Shown one piece after another: positions 1-4,580 of a DNA stretch of 4,580 nucleotides. The stretch lies in the IMG/VR virus record IMGVR_UViG_2698536312_000015; one strand, given 5' to 3'. How positions within the stretch are numbered: the first letter of the stretch is position 1; every line of letters begins with the position of its first letter. Source of the stretch: a virus (lineage: Duplodnaviria > Heunggongvirae > Uroviricota > Caudoviricetes). The notes below the pieces were generated by a model, which was not told the origin of the DNA, made no database searches, and saw only the letters and a program-made list of their open reading frames with translations. The position numbers and the translations under genes are program-made.

Positions 1-12
1 AGTGTAGCGGTA

Positions 13-1446
13 TTAAGCGCAGCTATTTAGTGAATTAAGTAAATTAGTCAGTGACCTTGTAAAGTCTGTTAAACCTTCCTGTGAACCATCGAACATTAAG
101 GCCAGATTATTATTCCATGAATTACTTAAGCGGCCTAACTGCGTCTGAGTAGAGTTAATAATCTTTTCCCATCCACCAGCTTTATCAATCATCCTTCCCA
201 TTTCAGCGGATACTTTAGGAAGAACATCTTTAGAAAGAACCTTACCGTCTTTCATGGCCTTGTCTAATTCTTCCGTAGTCATCCCAAGACTTCTGGCAAA
301 TAACTGAAAAGCACCTGCCATTCTGTCACCTAATTGACCGCGTAGCTCTTCAGCCTGAATCTTTCCTTTAGATGCCATCTGCTCGAAAGCTTTTAAAATC
401 CCGTTAATTTCATCGGTGCTTAGCCCCATTAATCTGGATGTACCAATCACATTAGAAAATAAGGATTCTTTCTGGTCTGCATTCATATCACCAGCACCAG
501 CGGAAAACTTAGCAAAACTGCTTAATGTTTCAATCTGGTCTACACCACTACTATCAGCAAGATTCTTAACAAATTCTGTAGCTCGTTTAGCACCTTCATC
601 ACCTAAAACGAATTGTGCCGCTCGTTGTGATGCTTCTTTTTTCAGACCAACCTCCATAATCCGCCTGTAAGCTTCTAAGGCTGTCTGAAAACTATAAATG
701 GCTGTACCTGCTTTGATTGCACTCGTAGCTAATACATCCAGACTATTTGAAGCATTTTCACTGTGATTATTTTTGCTGGTGGTCTTGTTAAACTTAGAAA
801 GTGTTTCACGAAGAGACTGATTTAACTTTGCTAACTCACGATTAAAAGTTTCGTTTCCAAGTGTCTTGGATTTACTGCTTAAGCTGTAATACTGGCTTTT
901 AAAATACTTCTCAAGCATAGGATTAAAGTCACGAAGCTTGCTCATATTCGCTGAGTAAGCTGCTGTGATTGCTCTGCTTCCGCTAATTCGTGGCTGTCTT
1001 GNNNNNNNNNNNNNNNNNNNNNGTTGTCTAAGTGGCTTTAAAGTATCCTCAATTTCAGTTTTAATCTTAAACGCTCTAGTGTTTTTAAGACGCTGCTCAA
1101 TCTTGGAAACAGTTTTATCGACATTTCTTTCCATTAGTTTGAGAGAATNNNNNNNNNNNNNNNNNNNNNNNNNNNNNNNNNNNNNNNNNNNNNNNNNNNN
1201 NNNNNNNNNNNNNNNNNNNNNNNNNNNNNNNNNNNNNNNNNNNNNNNNNNNNNNNNNNNNNNNNNNNNNNNNNNNNNNNNNNNNNNNNNNNNNNNNNNNN
1301 NNNNNNNNNNNNNNNNNNNNNNNNNNNNNNNNNNNNNNNNNNNNNNNNNNNNNNNNNNNNNNNNNNNNNNNNNNNNNNNNNNNNNNNNNNNNNNNNNNNN
1401 NNNNNNNNNNNNNNNNNNNNNNNNNNNNNNNNNNNNNNNCATACAA
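13..1446 (-). CDS. Tape-measure-domain protein (putative tail length tape measure protein); true start hidden in or near the N-masked block
   Basis: Long minus-strand ORF ending at TAA (13-15). Residues encoded around 190-423 (…GLSTDEINGILKAFEQMASKGKIQAEELRGQLGDRMAGAFQLFARSLGMTTEELDKAMKDGKVLSKDVLPKVSAEMGRM…) match, from memory, the conserved core of phage tape measure proteins (TP901-type / tape_meas_nterm). The frame is preserved across the 21-nt N run. The track start (TTG 1444-1446) overlaps the terminator T-tract and is not credible; the in-frame ATG at 1132-1134 has no Shine-Dalgarno, so the start is probably inside 1149-1439. Confidence 0.6.
   Translation of the reverse strand: MYXXXXXXXXXXXXXXXXXXXXXXXXXXXXXXXXXXXXXXXXXXXXXXXXXXXXXXXXXXXXXXXXXXXXXXXXXXXXXXXXXXXXXXXXXXXXXXXXXXSLKLMERNVDKTVSKIEQRLKNTRAFKIKTEIEDTLKPLRQXXXXXXXXRQPRISGSRAITAAYSANMSKLRDFNPMLEKYFKSQYYSLSSKSKTLGNETFNRELAKLNQSLRETLSKFNKTTSKNNHSENASNSLDVLATSAIKAGTAIYSFQTALEAYRRIMEVGLKKEASQRAAQFVLGDEGAKRATEFVKNLADSSGVDQIETLSSFAKFSAGAGDMNADQKESLFSNVIGTSRLMGLSTDEINGILKAFEQMASKGKIQAEELRGQLGDRMAGAFQLFARSLGMTTEELDKAMKDGKVLSKDVLPKVSAEMGRMIDKAGGWEKIINSTQTQLGRLSNSWNNNLALMFDGSQEGLTDFTRSLTNLLNSLNSCA
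1002..1022. other. N run (21 nt) inside the tape-measure-like ORF
   Basis: Directly seen. Length is a multiple of 3 and the reading frame is continuous across it; flanked by a short direct repeat (TGTCT at 995-999 and 1026-1030; protein ...RQ[mask]RQ...). Confidence 0.95.
1149..1439. other. N run (291 nt) hiding the 5' end of the tape-measure-like gene and its upstream region
   Basis: Directly seen. 291 = 97 codons. Lies between the terminator (1444-1488) and the first visible tape-measure-like codons (<=1148). Confidence 0.95.
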
Positions 1447-1488
1447 AAAAAGGGAGAGCTACCGATGTCACTCGATAATCTCTCCCCG
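1444..1488 (-). terminator. Rho-independent terminator (minus strand)
   Basis: On the minus strand: GGGGAGAG (1487-1480), 21-nt loop, CTCTCCCT (1458-1451), giving 7 Watson-Crick pairs plus one G-U, followed immediately by a T-tract (7 T including the wobble base, complement of 1445-1451). Sits 23 nt downstream of the 69-aa ORF stop. Confidence 0.6.
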
Positions 1489-1510
1489 TATTTACCCAAC
1501 CAATTCTTTT

Positions 1511-1720
1511 TTAATGTCGGACAAGATAATGTAATTCCGTTTCACCTATGATTTGAGCATCAGAAGGAATACGGTCAATACACCACTTTGGAATCTTGCG
1601 TGTTTTTGGTTTGTGTGAGGTGATAACTTGACGTTTGTTTTTAATTCTTAAGGCTGGCTTAGTTTGTAACTTTAAGTTTTCACAAACAGACCGAATAGTC
1701 TCTAAACGTTCTTCAAACAT
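1511..1720 (-). CDS. Hypothetical small basic protein (69 aa)
   Basis: ATG at 1718-1720 preceded by AGAGGTGA (1724-1731); TAA at 1511-1513. Lys/Arg-rich (…RIKNKRQVITSHKPKTRKIPKW…). No family recognised. Confidence 0.7.
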   Translation of the reverse strand: MFEERLETIRSVCENLKLQTKPALRIKNKRQVITSHKPKTRKIPKWCIDRIPSDAQIIGETELHYLVRH

Positions 1721-1723
1721 TAA

Positions 1724-1731
1724 TCACCTCT
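1724..1731 (-). promoter_or_regulatory. Shine-Dalgarno (AGAGGTGA) for the 69-aa ORF
   Basis: Complement of 1724-1731 reads AGAGGTGA, 3 nt before the ATG; matches the extended anti-SD. Confidence 0.65.
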
Positions 1732-1742
1732 TTAATTCATAA

Positions 1743-2453
1743 TCAAACAGCCTTGCTATACTTCTGAGAAATCTTCGTTAACTGCTCAATATCAGCCATC
1801 AAAGCAATCTTCTTCTGCGACTCATATTCACTAACAAGTTCTTTCATAGTATCAAGTTCTTTTTTAAGCTTTTGCTTTAACTTATCCAGTTTACCGGAAT
1901 AATGCTTAGTCAAATTAGCTTCAGCTAACTGAAGAATCTCTTCATCTGTTTTATCAGTCATCAGAATAAATTGACCAGAACCCCTTAATGCTTGTCTGAC
2001 ATCAATTAACCGGAACCCTTCAGGGATACTTTGAAGAACTTTAGGAACGTCTTCAATCGCTGTACCAAAACCATCATTAAAGTTTCCTTCATAATAGATA
2101 AACGGGTTTGACTTAATCTCGTAAGCAATATCATATTCTGAAGGTTTCGAGGTTTCTTCGAAGTTCTTAACAGCATCGTAAGCGACATCAAGTCTAAGAC
2201 GCTGTGATTTTAAAGCTGGGTAATATTCACGCTCAAGCTCAAATAGTGCTTCAGTTTTGCAGATATCAGGCATTTCTTGAGGCTCAGGAGACACAAAGGA
2301 AATTACCTTTGGTGACATCTTTAGCTCTTGCTCAAGCTCAATGCGCTTGTCATGCTCTTGACGCTGAATAGTATGTAGCGGATGTTCACCCTGTGGTGAC
2401 CAGTCTCCGAAGCTATCAACCTTTTTACCGTTAATATATAAATCGTTTGTCAT
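1743..2453 (-). CDS. Hypothetical acidic protein (236 aa) with a Lys/Glu-rich, probably helical C-terminal region
   Basis: ATG at 2451-2453, TGA at 1743-1745. Immediate upstream sequence is ATTATA then N; an identical ATTATAATG 35 nt upstream is preceded by GAGGAA, suggesting the hidden copy also carries an SD. C-terminus …KLDKLKQKLKKELDTMKELVSEYESQKK… is coiled-coil-like by composition. Confidence 0.7.
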   Translation of the reverse strand: MTNDLYINGKKVDSFGDWSPQGEHPLHTIQRQEHDKRIELEQELKMSPKVISFVSPEPQEMPDICKTEALFELEREYYPALKSQRLRLDVAYDAVKNFEETSKPSEYDIAYEIKSNPFIYYEGNFNDGFGTAIEDVPKVLQSIPEGFRLIDVRQALRGSGQFILMTDKTDEEILQLAEANLTKHYSGKLDKLKQKLKKELDTMKELVSEYESQKKIALMADIEQLTKISQKYSKAV

Positions 2454-2459
2454 TATAAT

Positions 2460-2485
2460 NNNNNNNNNNNNNNNNNNNNNNNNNN
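2460..2485. other. N run (26 nt) in the start region of the 236-aa gene
   Basis: Directly seen; flanked on both sides by the identical 9-mer CATTATAAT (2451-2459 and 2486-2494). Confidence 0.95.
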
Positions 2486-2494
2486 CATTATAAT

Positions 2495-2500
2495 TTCCTC
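2495..2500 (-). promoter_or_regulatory. Shine-Dalgarno (GAGGAA) 6 nt upstream of ATG 2486-2488
   Basis: Minus strand reads GAGGAA-ATTATA-ATG, an ideal initiation context. That ATG is out of frame with the 236-aa ORF and would give at most an 11-codon ORF ending at TAA 2453-2455. Confidence 0.5.
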
Positions 2501-2550
2501 TAAGTGTGGTTATTTCTTAATAGAGCACCTTCAACGCCAATACACTTAGA
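2499..2550 (-). promoter_or_regulatory. Possible RNA hairpin abutting the ribosome binding site
   Basis: Perfect 9-bp inverted repeat TCTAAGTGT / ACACTTAGA (plus 2499-2507 and 2542-2550), 34-nt loop. On the minus-strand transcript the 3' arm runs directly into the GAGGAA SD. No U-tract follows, so not a terminator. Confidence 0.35.
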
Positions 2551-2557
2551 AGATGAC

Positions 2558-3454
2558 TTAACGATTTATTAAAGNNNNNNNNNNNNNNNNNNNNNNNNNN
2601 NNNNNNNNNNNNNNNNNNNNNNNNNNNNNNNNNNNNNNNNNNNNNNNNNNNNNNNNNNNNNNNNNNNNNNNNNNNNNNNNNNNNNNNNNNNNNNNNNNNN
2701 NNNNNNNNNNNNNNNNNNNNNNNNNNNNNNNNNNNNNNNNNNNNNNNNNNNNNNNNNNNNNNNNNNNNNNNNNNNNNNNNNNNNNNNNNNNNNNNNNNNN
2801 NNNNNNNNNNNNNNNNNNNNNNNNNNNNNNNNNNNNNNNNNNNNNNNNNNNNNNNNNNNNNNNNNNNNNNNNNNNNNNNNNNNNNNNNNNNNNNNNNNNN
2901 NNNNNNNNNNNNNNNNNNNNNNNNNNNNNNNNNNNNNNNNNNNNNNNNNNNNNNNNNNNNNNNNNNNNNNNNNNNNNNNNNNNNNNNNNNNNNNNNNNNN
3001 NNNNNNNNNNNNNNNNNNNNNNNNNNNNNNNNNNNNNNNNNNNNNNNNNNNNNNNNNNNNNNNNNNNNNNNNNNNNNNNNNNNNNNNNNNNNNNNNNNNN
3101 NNNNNNNNNNNNNNNNNNNNNNNNNNNNNNNNNNNNNNNNNNNNNNNNNNNNNNNNNNNNNNNNNNNNNNNNNNNNNNNNNNNNNNNNNNNNCCTTGAGA
3201 TATTTTTCAGGGCTAACGCTGTATTTGTTCGTTTCTTCGATAATAAGACGCTTCATGTTTGAGTCGGTAACAGGAAACATAAAACGCGGTTCACCAGTTT
3301 CAATTTCCTGAATAAAGTCTTCAATTTCTTCTGAGTTTTCAGCCATTAGCTTTAGTAATTTATCAAGGTCAATTGATACACCGGAATCAGCGAAAGCCTG
3401 CACCATCATAGCAGTGTCGCTATCAATGAAAATCTGTAATTCATATTCGTTCAT
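2558..3454 (-). CDS. Hypothetical protein with strongly acidic N-terminus; only the first 87 codons are visible, the rest is N-masked
   Basis: ATG at 3452-3454 with AAGGAG 9 nt upstream; the track's TTG 3485-3487 start is rejected. Visible N-terminus MNEYELQIFIDSDTAMMVQAFADSGVSIDLDKLLKLMAENSEEIEDFIQEIETGEPRF… has 19 D/E vs 8 K/R in 87 residues. The ORF then enters the N block at 3192; the end at 2558 is only the first stop after the mask and is unverified. Confidence 0.5.
   Translation of the reverse strand: MNEYELQIFIDSDTAMMVQAFADSGVSIDLDKLLKLMAENSEEIEDFIQEIETGEPRFMFPVTDSNMKRLIIEETNKYSVSPEKYLKXXXXXXXXXXXXXXXXXXXXXXXXXXXXXXXXXXXXXXXXXXXXXXXXXXXXXXXXXXXXXXXXXXXXXXXXXXXXXXXXXXXXXXXXXXXXXXXXXXXXXXXXXXXXXXXXXXXXXXXXXXXXXXXXXXXXXXXXXXXXXXXXXXXXXXXXXXXXXXXXXXXXXXXXXXXXXXXXXXXXXXXXXXXXXXXXXXXXXXXXXXXXXXXLINR
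2575..3192. other. N run (618 nt) hiding most of the acidic-protein gene, possibly more than one gene
   Basis: Directly seen. 618 = 206 codons; content unknowable from this window. Confidence 0.95.
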
Positions 3455-3462
3455 TTTTAAAA

Positions 3463-3470
3463 TCTCCTTT
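3463..3470 (-). promoter_or_regulatory. Shine-Dalgarno (AAAGGAGA) for the acidic-protein gene
   Basis: Complement of 3463-3470 reads AAAGGAGA, 9 nt before ATG 3452-3454; a second SD-like GAGGAGG lies at 3479-3485. Confidence 0.65.
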
Positions 3471-3482
3471 TTACCAGACCTC

Positions 3483-3588
3483 CTCAATCGCTCTGTAACG
3501 AGCTAAACAGTCTTTTTCAGGGGTAGCCTGTACAGTGGTATTACCCACCCTAAAATAAGATAGTTTTTTGCGTTAGAATGCGATTGAG
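3483..3588. repeat. 9-bp inverted repeat pair (CTCAATCGC at 3483-3491, GCGATTGAG at 3580-3588) separated by 88 nt, with palindrome CTGTACAG (3528-3535) near the centre
   Basis: Read directly from the largest visible intergenic region (3455-3632). Rough chance expectation for a 9-mer inverted match in a region this size is a few percent. Confidence 0.4.
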
Positions 3589-3632
3589 AGCGTCTGATAA
3601 GCTGTTTTTCTAATTTCTCTTAAAGTCTCGGA

Positions 3633-3833
3633 CTACCAATAACCTAATTCCGCTTTATTTCGTTCAAACCATTCCGCTGTAACTGCTGTCTTTAGTGTTG
3701 CGTTTGGGCTGGTGGCATGAATGAAGATATCTTTTGGATTGCAAGCATCACCGAAACCACCTTCTTTGATGAGCAGGTCTGATACATGCTTAATCATTTT
3801 ATCTGTCAAATATTCGAATTTAATACATAACAT
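3633..3833 (-). CDS. Hypothetical small protein (66 aa from ATG; 77 aa if the upstream TTG at 3864-3866 is used)
   Basis: ATG at 3831-3833 overlaps the stop of the upstream ORF in a TAATG arrangement, with GGAGA 4 nt upstream; TAG at 3633-3635. No family recognised. Confidence 0.5.
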   Translation of the reverse strand: MLCIKFEYLTDKMIKHVSDLLIKEGGFGDACNPKDIFIHATSPNATLKTAVTAEWFERNKAELGYW

Positions 3834-4105
3834 TAAATCTCCAGGAGTAAATTGTTTGGGTGGCAATTTCTTTTATTACCATCCCTGAAGATAATCTTTT
3901 TAGTTGCCTGAACTTCATGATGCAAAAACCAGATGACATACTTCAGATAATAATCACGAGTGCCATAACGAATCATTGGATTACCGTAAGCATCATCTCT
4001 TGTCTTAACCTCTCCACCATCAATCCATTCAAGCATTCCTGTCTCATAATTAATCATGAAGTAAGTTGCAAAGAACCGTTTAATATCATCTCGCCATTGC
4101 TTCAT
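3833..4105 (-). CDS. HNH_3-like (homing-endonuclease-like) small protein, apparently lacking the catalytic histidines
   Basis: ATG 4103-4105 preceded by a perfect SD AGGAGGT (4112-4118, 6-nt spacer); TAA at 3833-3835. C-terminal half …YLKYVIWFLHHEVQATKKIIFRDGNKRNCHPNNLLLEI resembles the HNH_3 core as I recall it (…HRLVW…DHIDGNK.NN…NL…), but with F/R where the His of H-I-D-G-N is expected, and it stops right after the NL motif. Confidence 0.5.
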   Translation of the reverse strand: MKQWRDDIKRFFATYFMINYETGMLEWIDGGEVKTRDDAYGNPMIRYGTRDYYLKYVIWFLHHEVQATKKIIFRDGNKRNCHPNNLLLEI

Positions 4106-4107
4106 AA

Positions 4108-4386
4108 TCAGACCTCCTGAGACAGTTTGTGAATTTTGATACTTAGTAACCTTGCTAAATCCAGTCCAAAAGCATTTAAGGATTTCAGACTATCAAGGTC
4201 ATCTTGCTTAATCCTGATATGGTGTCTTGCAGCCTCTAAGCGACTATTAAGCAAATCCTGTTCGTTAATATCACGGTTAATTGCAAGCTTCATCACTGCT
4301 GAGTGTGGCAGACCTGTAATGTTTTTGATTCGGTTCAGTTCATCAAAGGCTGTCTTTGTAACTCTGGTTAATGTGTGTTTATTCAT
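4108..4386 (-). CDS. Ribbon-helix-helix (CopG/Arc/MetJ-like) DNA-binding protein, 92 aa
   Basis: ATG 4384-4386 with AGAGGA (4394-4399) 7 nt upstream; TGA at 4108-4110. N-terminus MNKHTLTRVTKTAFDELNRIKNITGLPHSAVMKLAINRD fits the RHH pattern (beta-strand, helix A, G-x-x-x-S-A turn, helix B; compare CopG …MGLSKSAMISVAL…). A ~50-aa C-terminal extension follows. Confidence 0.6.
   Translation of the reverse strand: MNKHTLTRVTKTAFDELNRIKNITGLPHSAVMKLAINRDINEQDLLNSRLEAARHHIRIKQDDLDSLKSLNAFGLDLARLLSIKIHKLSQEV
4112..4118 (-). promoter_or_regulatory. Shine-Dalgarno (AGGAGGT) for the HNH_3-like ORF, embedded in the 3' end of the RHH gene
   Basis: Complement of 4112-4118 reads AGGAGGT, 6 nt before ATG 4103-4105; overlaps the last codons of the RHH ORF (…Q E V stop). 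Confidence 0.7.
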
Positions 4387-4580
4387 TTAAAAATCCTCTG
4401 TAACTAAATAGGGGTCAAACTCGAAATCTGGTTGCTCGTTTTCCATTGGCTCAATATTCCCAACGGCAATATGATGTTCAACAATGCCAATTAATTTCGC
4501 GCACATCACAGCAAGCAAAGCGCAATATTTATCGCTTGGTAATTCGTAACTGGATTTGCCCCTATATTTCCAGACATCTG
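4387..4580 (-). CDS. Partial CDS (C-terminal 63 codons; start lies beyond the window edge)
   Basis: Open minus-strand frame from the window edge (4578) to TAA at 4387-4389, ending …NIEPMENEQPDFEFDPYLVTEDF. Its stop directly abuts the ATG of the RHH gene (TAAATG) and its last codons contain that gene's SD. Absent from the ORF track because it has no start in the window. Confidence 0.5.
   Translation of the reverse strand, partial: DVWKYRGKSSYELPSDKYCALLAVMCAKLIGIVEHHIAVGNIEPMENEQPDFEFDPYLVTEDF

Follow-up and report, generated by a model that had tools for sequence, protein, structure and literature searches.

Is the short HNH-like gene carried by this phage-classified DNA a working nuclease, a decaying one, or a protein that has given up cutting for another task? 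The DNA is a stretch of 4,580 nucleotides (nt) from the IMG/VR virus record IMGVR_UViG_2698536312_000015 (Caudoviricetes), referred to here in its entirety as the window. The gene is an open reading frame (ORF) on the minus strand encoding 90 amino acids (aa), and in E. coli genomes the annotation pipeline PGAP labels it 'HNH endonuclease' (e.g. WP_000816061.1). The original prediction, made from the letters alone, held that the ORF resembles the HNH_3 family but is catalytically degenerate and C-terminally truncated, and proposed either a domesticated, non-nucleolytic DNA-binding derivative or a decaying homing endonuclease. The ORF, the quoted C-terminal peptide (IIFRDGNKRNCHPNNLLLEI) and the KYVIW element (residues 55 to 59) are all present as it described, and the translation finishes ...YLKYVIWFLHHEVQATKKIIFRDGNKRNCHPNNLLLEI. 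We put the probability at about one half that the protein descends from a free-standing HNH_3 homing endonuclease, has been domesticated without nuclease activity and now serves the genomic island in which it resides as a small protein that binds nucleic acid or acts as an adaptor. The argument turns on the following parts of the gene.

3833 to 4105, minus strand: the HNH_3-like ORF (90 aa, 273 nt), taken from the ORF list, with its ATG at 4103-4105 and its TAA at 3833-3835.
3947 to 4105, minus strand: the N-terminal region, residues 1-53, for which DSSP on the AlphaFold2 (AF2) model gives a helix at 6-15 and strands at 16-19, 24-27, 43-47 and 50-53.
3842 to 3952, minus strand: the degenerate HNH_3 core, residues 52-88, delimited by Pfam and the alignments and comprising a helix (54-63), a beta-beta part and an end at NL.
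3938 to 3943, minus strand: codons K55-Y56, standing in place of the H-R of 'HRLVW' according to MAFFT and hhalign.
3887 to 3892, minus strand: codons I72 (ATC) and F73 (TTC; 3887-3889), at the positions of I-HmuI D74 (the metal-ligand Asp) and H75 (the general-base His) in all four alignments described below.
3848 to 3853, minus strand: codons N85-L86 (NL), an invariant column equivalent to I-HmuI N87 and the sole canonical polar signature retained.

Against the Pfam profile PF13392 (HNH_3), residues 52-88 of the protein align with profile positions 1-38 of 46 at E=7.5e-5; the score of 22.7 bits lies below the 24.8-bit gathering score, and the protein is not a family member by that measure. 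For comparison, the sister protein P0011 reaches 33.4 bits and the His-less protein P0018 reaches 28.7 bits. PHROGs returned HNH matches that were weak, and neither NCBIfam nor PADLOC matched the 90-aa protein or its small neighbours. Profile-profile comparison was far more decisive: hhalign aligned the family profile (A4) with that of 56 canonical HNH_3(-AP2) proteins (A5) over 77 columns, with a probability of 98.4% and E=7e-15. An AF2 model built on a 64-sequence alignment had a mean predicted local confidence (pLDDT) of 94.8, and the top solved structure found for it by Foldseek was 1u3e, the homing endonuclease I-HmuI (probability 1.00; query-normalized template-modelling score, TMq, 0.61), which is also the best sequence-profile match in the PDB. 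A phmmer search of PDB sequences gave only chance matches (antibody light chains, a xylanase). In the viral model database BFVD, 58 models matched at E<=1e-3; dozens of phage HNH endonucleases are among them, with TMq of 0.7-0.87. Several of the matches are stand-alone proteins of 92-123 aa, and judging from such models short stand-alone HNH_3 proteins are common among phages. By homology (hhalign) and by predicted fold (Foldseek) the protein belongs to the HNH_3 or I-HmuI-like His-Me fingers, and sequence and model together confirm it as a genuine but degenerate homologue of the I-HmuI type.

The alignment to I-HmuI also spans residues 1-53, which correspond to the small antiparallel sheet of I-HmuI-type enzymes. 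In those enzymes the sheet is responsible for sequence-specific DNA recognition (PMC3384342). By analogy, and from the modelled fold, we infer that the 90-aa protein may bind DNA.

The catalytic positions were compared in four independent alignments: MAFFT with 60 canonical proteins, a profile against the I-HmuI sequence, hhalign, and a local hidden Markov model (HMM) of the canonical set against the six-frame translation. In I-HmuI, D74 is a metal ligand and H75 the general base (PMC2816704, PMC3384342; residue roles also from PMC2699513). Every alignment placed Phe73 at the end of beta-strand 1, where the general-base His is expected, and Ile72 at the position of the metal-binding Asp. F73 is invariant across 33 copies of the gene's own clade (clade A, described below), and an 83%-identical allele likewise reads F-R. 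The pair K55-Y56, which replaces the H-R of the 'HRLVW' element as had been proposed, is common to the 90-aa protein and its His-bearing sister clade. Elsewhere in the core, C81 aligns with the Asn of 'DNR' and L87 with the invariant Arg that follows NL. Canonical enzymes retain H56, D73, H74, N82, R88, N95 and N98 (A5 numbering). The 90-aa protein keeps the central Asn, N85, whose I-HmuI equivalent N87 hydrogen-bonds the general base (PMC2816704).

Two candidate substitutes for the lost residues were considered and rejected. The His pair of FLHHE (H62/H63) aligns with the His of 'FLHYG', a separately conserved residue that canonical enzymes possess besides the catalytic His, and it is therefore not a relocated base. 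Neither outcome named in advance as fatal to the original prediction, a histidine at the catalytic position or a complete lack of significant HNH_3 similarity, was thus observed, and the prediction's observation is confirmed. A zinc site formed by H62, H63, C81 and H82 is contradicted by the Phe found at C81 in the 83%-identical allele and by the Tyr, Thr or Arg found at three of these positions in the sister clade.

The C-terminus is equally deficient. The protein terminates four residues past NL, whereas canonical relatives run on with 'R.AT...N..N' and usually then an AP2 domain. The canonical Asn residues 9-12 positions past NL, including the helix metal ligand, have no counterpart. The nearest well-populated relatives are HNH_3 plus AP2 proteins of ~145-175 aa; the 90-aa protein lacks both the helix end and the entire AP2 domain, and Pfam recognises no other domain (AP2, NUMOD or helix-turn-helix, HTH) joined to the nuclease domain within its 90 aa. 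We considered whether a frameshifted remnant of the helix or AP2 domain persists in the downstream 66-aa ORF or in another frame. This was rejected: the 66-aa ORF is unrelated to the canonical family (hhalign probability 0.1%), and a six-frame HMM search downstream of the 90-aa ORF found no helix or AP2 remnant in any frame. Since no remnant lies downstream and an independently inserted sister cassette likewise ends its own coding sequence right after NL (see below), the C-terminal truncation is not a fresh lesion. The description 'truncated' holds for the short end and fails if taken to mean recent damage.

Lacking the general-base His, the adjacent Asp, the helix metal ligand and any AP2, NUMOD or HTH module, the protein is most likely unable to hydrolyse DNA by the His-Me mechanism.

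An exhaustive HMMER run against 1.84 billion representative proteins gave only 18 matches, and metagenome contigs added 53 further loci. Of 5426 complete E. coli genomes, 67 carry the gene, and in every one the nt identity is 96-99%; outside E. coli, GTDB species representatives hold it in Escherichia albertii only. At the matching position PGAP calls an HNH endonuclease gene in all 60 of the complete E. coli genomes listed, 58 of which align gap-free across the full 273 nt. The protein and metagenome copies split into two clades. Clade A, to which the window gene belongs, comprises 33 usable copies in 25 haplotypes, 32 of them intact. Clade B, typified by P0011, comprises ~22 copies that are 39% identical to the 90-aa protein, 95 aa long, and always carry His at the general-base column. 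The two share a length class, the K-Y-V-x-W element, Ile in place of the metal-binding Asp, the absence of AP2, the operon and the island family. P0011 differs in its His, in a Pfam score above the threshold and in its position on the opposite side of the 66-aa gene.

We next consider selection on the protein since the loss of the His. Against the 83%-identical allele (L003), synonymous divergence (dS) is 0.53 and nonsynonymous divergence (dN) 0.089, giving a ratio (omega) of 0.17 that is the same for residues 1-50 and 51-90. Polymorphism tells a similar story, with pooled nonsynonymous to synonymous ratios (pN/pS) of 0.27 in clade A and 0.17 in clade B and a value of 0.26 for the N-terminal half (residues 1-53). 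For two islands, L001 (E. coli O111:H21 15A) and L002 (strain FORC_041), omega relative to the window is 0.06-0.09. From the loss of the His onwards, therefore, purifying selection has acted on the whole protein, the dead HNH half included. Simple decay does not describe the gene; signs of it are confined to individual copies. Of the two outcomes offered by the original prediction, domestication is thus favoured by the 32 intact copies of 33 and by the dN/dS of 0.17, and decay applies to single copies only.

Several of the disrupted alleles can be described individually. P0003 is interrupted at codon 72 by an insertion sequence (IS) and continues into the peptide GFAPIFPD..., which by eye resembles a translation of the IS2 terminal repeat. 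In P0002 and P0010 a deletion has joined the gene to the downstream 66-aa gene, and P0009 is a fusion with the alternative downstream gene of contig L026.

The junctions of the gene bear on its origin. L001 has the order 93-aa gene, HNH gene (HNH90), 66-aa gene and downstream sequence. A sister island, L004, has a 95-aa gene first, then a 71-aa gene, a second HNH gene (HNH95) and downstream sequence. The 66-aa and 71-aa genes are homologous (68%). In L004 the stop of the upstream gene and the start of the 71-aa gene overlap directly (TGATG) with no HNH gene in between; in L001 the HNH gene sits exactly between the two (TGA-TT-ATG...ATT-TA-ATG). In the window the corresponding unit is:

3834 to 4107, minus strand: a gene-sized cassette (TT-ATG...ATT-TA), lying between the stop of the 92-aa gene and the ATG of the 66-aa gene.

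HNH95 (L004 10001-10288) is a P0011-type gene inserted immediately past the last codons of the 71-aa gene. Its own last seven codons (ARDFKRN*) derive from flanking sequence that is non-coding in L001, so its terminal Asn and the metal ligand are not homologous, and in both HNH90 and HNH95 the coding sequence proper to the cassette ends right past NL. P0011 was considered as a syntenic orthologue of the 90-aa gene and rejected on the junction comparison, which places the two on opposite sides of the 66-aa gene. A third arrangement keeps HNH90 at 97% (L026) or 83% (L003) identity with the downstream gene replaced. These clean junctions identify both HNH90 and HNH95 as gene-sized cassettes, resembling free-standing homing endonuclease genes, and the presence/absence polymorphism expected of such genes is found between L001 and L004. 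A homing-endonuclease origin of the 90-aa gene is supported by this sequence comparison.

Conservation along the island is uneven. A block at 3450-4105, containing an intergenic stretch, the 66-aa gene and the HNH gene, is 95-98% identical among islands, while the remainder is 72-87% identical. Identity falls sharply at the HNH start codon, and by per-bin identity the HNH-containing segment is the most conserved of the island. Relative to L002, dS is 0.083 for the HNH gene, 0.025 for the 66-aa gene (the same value as against L001); it reaches 0.70 in the 185-aa gene and is saturated in the 92-aa gene. The low-dS block indicates a recent shared ancestry of the HNH and 66-aa module, for which homing-like spread, a selective sweep or use as a recombination anchor could be the cause.

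Positions 1-4550 of the window are part of an island of ~11.4 kb with 36-41% GC. It occupies ~5230-16600 in L001, between tonB and yciI, and ~3300-14800 in L002, between wrbA and ymdF. The sister island in L004 (~5200-16900) has chromosomal flanks ~81% identical to E. coli and a recombinase 95% identical to that of L001. The gene order begins with a large serine recombinase, followed by a Dit-like 'baseplate' protein and a tape measure protein; after several small genes of unknown function come the HNH-like gene, the 92-aa gene and the 185-aa gene, the last of which is separated by ~2 kb devoid of ORFs from a small serine recombinase. Two of these proteins have counterparts in Felixounavirus phages: wV8 gp74 for the Dit-like protein, at 82-83% identity, and the phage tape measure protein for that of the island, at ~30% identity across the full length. 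The order of the two genes is that of wV8 gp73-gp74. There are no other recognisable phage genes. The ORF-free region (L001 13450-15460, from the 185-aa gene to the small serine recombinase) spans ~2 kb with no ORF >64 aa; a search with Rfam gave no match at E<=0.1 there or elsewhere on the island. Its counterpart in L004 encodes a Dam methylase and a canonical 174-aa HNH_3-AP2 endonuclease. PADLOC found no defence system among the ten island proteins scanned, and a literature search for a described island or satellite of this kind found none. Mobilised by a serine recombinase, the island is a candidate for a satellite or defence element whose targets would be virulent phages of the FelixO1 type.

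Other features of the island part of the window deserve mention. Two long masked runs of N, at ~1022-1439 and ~2575-3192, break up the tape measure gene as well as the ORF at 2558-3487, and so neither can be assessed in the window itself. A 236-aa gene upstream of the tape measure gene (window 1743-2453) shows ~26% aa identity between L001 and L004, against 77-86% for its neighbours; a homologue in one record (L002) bears the PGAP label 'transposase', which finds no support in Pfam.

The immediate neighbourhood of the HNH-like gene is as follows.

3488 to 3632, minus strand: the intergenic stretch of the conserved block, 95-97% identical among islands by per-bin identity.
3633 to 3833, minus strand: the 66-aa gene, of unknown function (PGAP coordinates in L001), whose ATG overlaps the HNH stop (TAATG).
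4108 to 4386, minus strand: the upstream 92-aa gene of the same operon (ORF list; PGAP in L001), highly variable among islands.
4113 to 4118, minus strand: the ribosome-binding site AGGAGG, read from the sequence 7 nt upstream of the ATG and within the 3' end of the 92-aa gene.
4387 to 4550, minus strand: what IS2 has left of the operon's first gene (185 aa), its 3' part; the alignment to L001 12892-13056, where the gene is complete, ends at window position 4551.
4551 to 4580, no strand assigned: the terminal 30 nt of IS2, matching at 100% the IS2 ends annotated in phage, plasmid and genome records.

The strong AGGAGG site and the TAATG overlap mark the HNH-like gene as a member of a tightly packed operon, and from this arrangement we consider it translationally coupled to its neighbours. 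The 92-aa gene is ~65% identical to that of L002 at the nt level. The 66-aa gene had no family match in Pfam, PHROGs, NCBIfam or PADLOC. Scans for promoters, terminators and repeats around the HNH-like gene returned nothing exceeding chance.

Under the reading that we favour, an HNH_3 gene would have entered the operon of a serine-recombinase-mobilised island as a gene-sized cassette. Since the loss of its general-base His, the gene has been held by purifying selection. The protein would act through the retained recognition sheet, for example by binding, but not cutting, a site in island DNA or in the DNA of an infecting phage. A number of observations weigh against domestication. The dS of 0.03-0.10 in the block comprising the HNH and 66-aa genes, compared with 0.7 or saturation in the flanks, is also the pattern expected from an actively spreading selfish gene. 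Disrupted alleles (frameshifted, fused, IS-interrupted or prematurely ended) account for 10 of 17 distinct protein clusters, the intact cluster holding 189 members and the two largest frameshifted ones 8 and 6, and L003 carries a nonsense codon (TGA) at codon 5. In the window itself, the IS2 insertion in the 185-aa gene separates the HNH-like gene from its native upstream region and severs the operon from its first gene and native promoter. The net charge of the protein, counted by eye from the sequence, is only ~+2. The alignment underlying the AF2 model consists mostly of canonical enzymes, so that retention of the fold is not independent evidence. Finally, an H295A mutant of HpyAV retained ~1% activity (PMC2816704), and loss of the His alone is consequently not absolute proof of inactivity.

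Some of these same points fit a selfish remnant: a homing-endonuclease cassette that is dead, does nothing for the island and is heading for loss, persisting through its youth, through recombination between islands or through mobilisation in trans by a related active HNH_3 enzyme. In its favour are the gene-sized presence/absence junctions, typical of free-standing homing endonuclease genes, the sharp contrast in identity and dS between block and flanks (dS >=0.7 in the latter), and the frameshifted, fused and IS-interrupted alleles together with a nonsense allele. So is the canonical 174-aa enzyme of L004, 27-28% identical and sharing an N-terminal motif. Yet a dN/dS of 0.17 has been maintained over a dS of 0.53 since the H-to-F change, and the C-terminal half, useless to such a remnant, is as constrained as the N-terminal half. 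Moreover, 32 of the 33 copies are intact, the HNH endonuclease is annotated in all 60 of the listed E. coli genomes, and the clade-A islands examined (L001) lack a full-length partner enzyme. We consider a selfish remnant unlikely, while regarding it as the alternative that most deserves to be kept in mind. At the opposite extreme, the protein might still be a nuclease, using other residues (His82, His62, His63 or a Tyr) or a metal site supplied by a partner. An active homing endonuclease would give rise to just such a recent spread of its cassette through divergent islands. Some His-Me enzymes, moreover, carry Tyr at the position of the His (e.g. R.PacI; PMC3384342), the HpyAV mutant shows residual activity, and H82 is conserved in clade A, L003 included. 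Against this, the general base, the Asp ligand and the helix ligand, three out of four catalytic positions, are missing together, and H63 aligns with a His that is additional to the catalytic one in canonical enzymes. Both the sister clade and canonical enzymes have Arg where the 90-aa protein has H82, and L003 has Phe for C81; with both variable across relatives, no alternative catalytic site is conserved, and continued nuclease activity strikes us as barely credible.

A non-cutting protein could also act against other nucleases. As a decoy or inhibitor, the dead module would occupy the DNA site or the partner of an active HNH_3 enzyme belonging to FelixO1-like phages or to the island's own lineage, acting as a dominant-negative or immunity factor that blocks cleavage or subverts the phage. 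The Felixounavirus origin of the island's tail genes, in wV8 gp73-gp74 order, and the annotated HNH endonuclease gene of wV8 are consistent with such a role, as are the retention of the predicted recognition sheet after loss of the catalytic residues and the standing of the HNH gene as the most conserved island segment. However, tblastn with the 90-aa protein found no match in 50,697 phage records, PADLOC gave none either, and the case is wholly inferential; we hold a decoy function to be quite unlikely. A broader proposal, distinctly improbable in our estimation, places the mini-HNH protein and the co-inherited 66-aa gene at the working core of an as yet undescribed island that parasitises or combats phages, inserts by way of its large serine recombinase and brings its own versions of the Felixounavirus tape measure protein and of the product of the adjacent gene. 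There, the mini-HNH protein would recognise helper-phage or island DNA and leave it uncut, for instance as an excision trigger, to redirect packaging or to shield the site.

Returning to domestication as the preferred reading, its significance is partly practical. The 'HNH endonuclease' annotation in the 60 listed complete E. coli genomes is contradicted by the sequence, and its correction would be useful. The gene offers a compact and well-sampled case of a homing-endonuclease module that has most likely lost catalysis and is still under selection, and the His-bearing sister cassette nearby, together with the preserved junctions, makes the step from selfish nuclease to binding protein directly testable. 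An inactive His-Me finger is of a known kind; the surrounding island is more novel and perhaps the more important lead.

How does the protein compare with known systems? Its closest well-populated relatives are the HNH_3-AP2 endonucleases (P0026-P0086 and the 174-aa enzyme of L004), which combine PF13392 with PF00847. They share with it the N-terminal scaffold 'Y-x-x-TG-x-L-x-W ... G ... W-F-L-H', and the L004 enzyme additionally shares the N-terminal motif K.W.[ED][ED][VI].R[YF]. Of their canonical residues the 90-aa protein keeps only the NL Asn, and it stops ahead of the helix ligand. The likeness to I-HmuI, the intron-encoded HNH homing endonuclease of phage SPO1 (His-Me finger group 2, Jablonska et al. 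2017), lies in the N-terminal antiparallel sheet, the beta-beta part and the NL Asn. I-HmuI has in addition D74, H75, the helix Asn ligand, the minor-groove helices and a C-terminal HTH domain; it is 174 aa long and intron-encoded, whereas the window protein is 90 aa and is not.

Other His-less HNH_3 proteins exist. The nearest matches outside the family (P0015-P0024) have Phe or Tyr at the His column ('F-x-DGN'), often in 2-6 tandem modules, each of which ends directly past 'NL-x-L' as the 90-aa protein does, and Pfam recognises HNH_3 in them (P0024: 220 bits, 5 repeats). They differ in being multi-module proteins of 240-610 aa from unrelated metagenome contigs, and most retain the first His (KHH-x-x-WE); their contigs are too short for informative gene context. 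Because these modules end after NL and score above the Pfam threshold, the degenerate His-less form is a recurrent and stable variant of the HNH_3 domain. On one contig (L060, 84-2090), three consecutive genes are all built of HNH_3 modules.

A functional precedent is the SMAD MH1 domain, a His-Me finger whose catalytic region has devolved while DNA binding, through the sheet architecture of I-HmuI and I-PpoI, has been kept (PMC3384342, PMC5714182). SMAD MH1 is a eukaryotic transcription-factor domain of another His-Me group, and the resemblance is one of analogy, not of membership. Should the broader proposal of a phage-parasitic or anti-phage island hold, the 90-aa protein would be a bacterial counterpart of the transitions from homing endonuclease to regulator known for SMAD MH1 and AP2.

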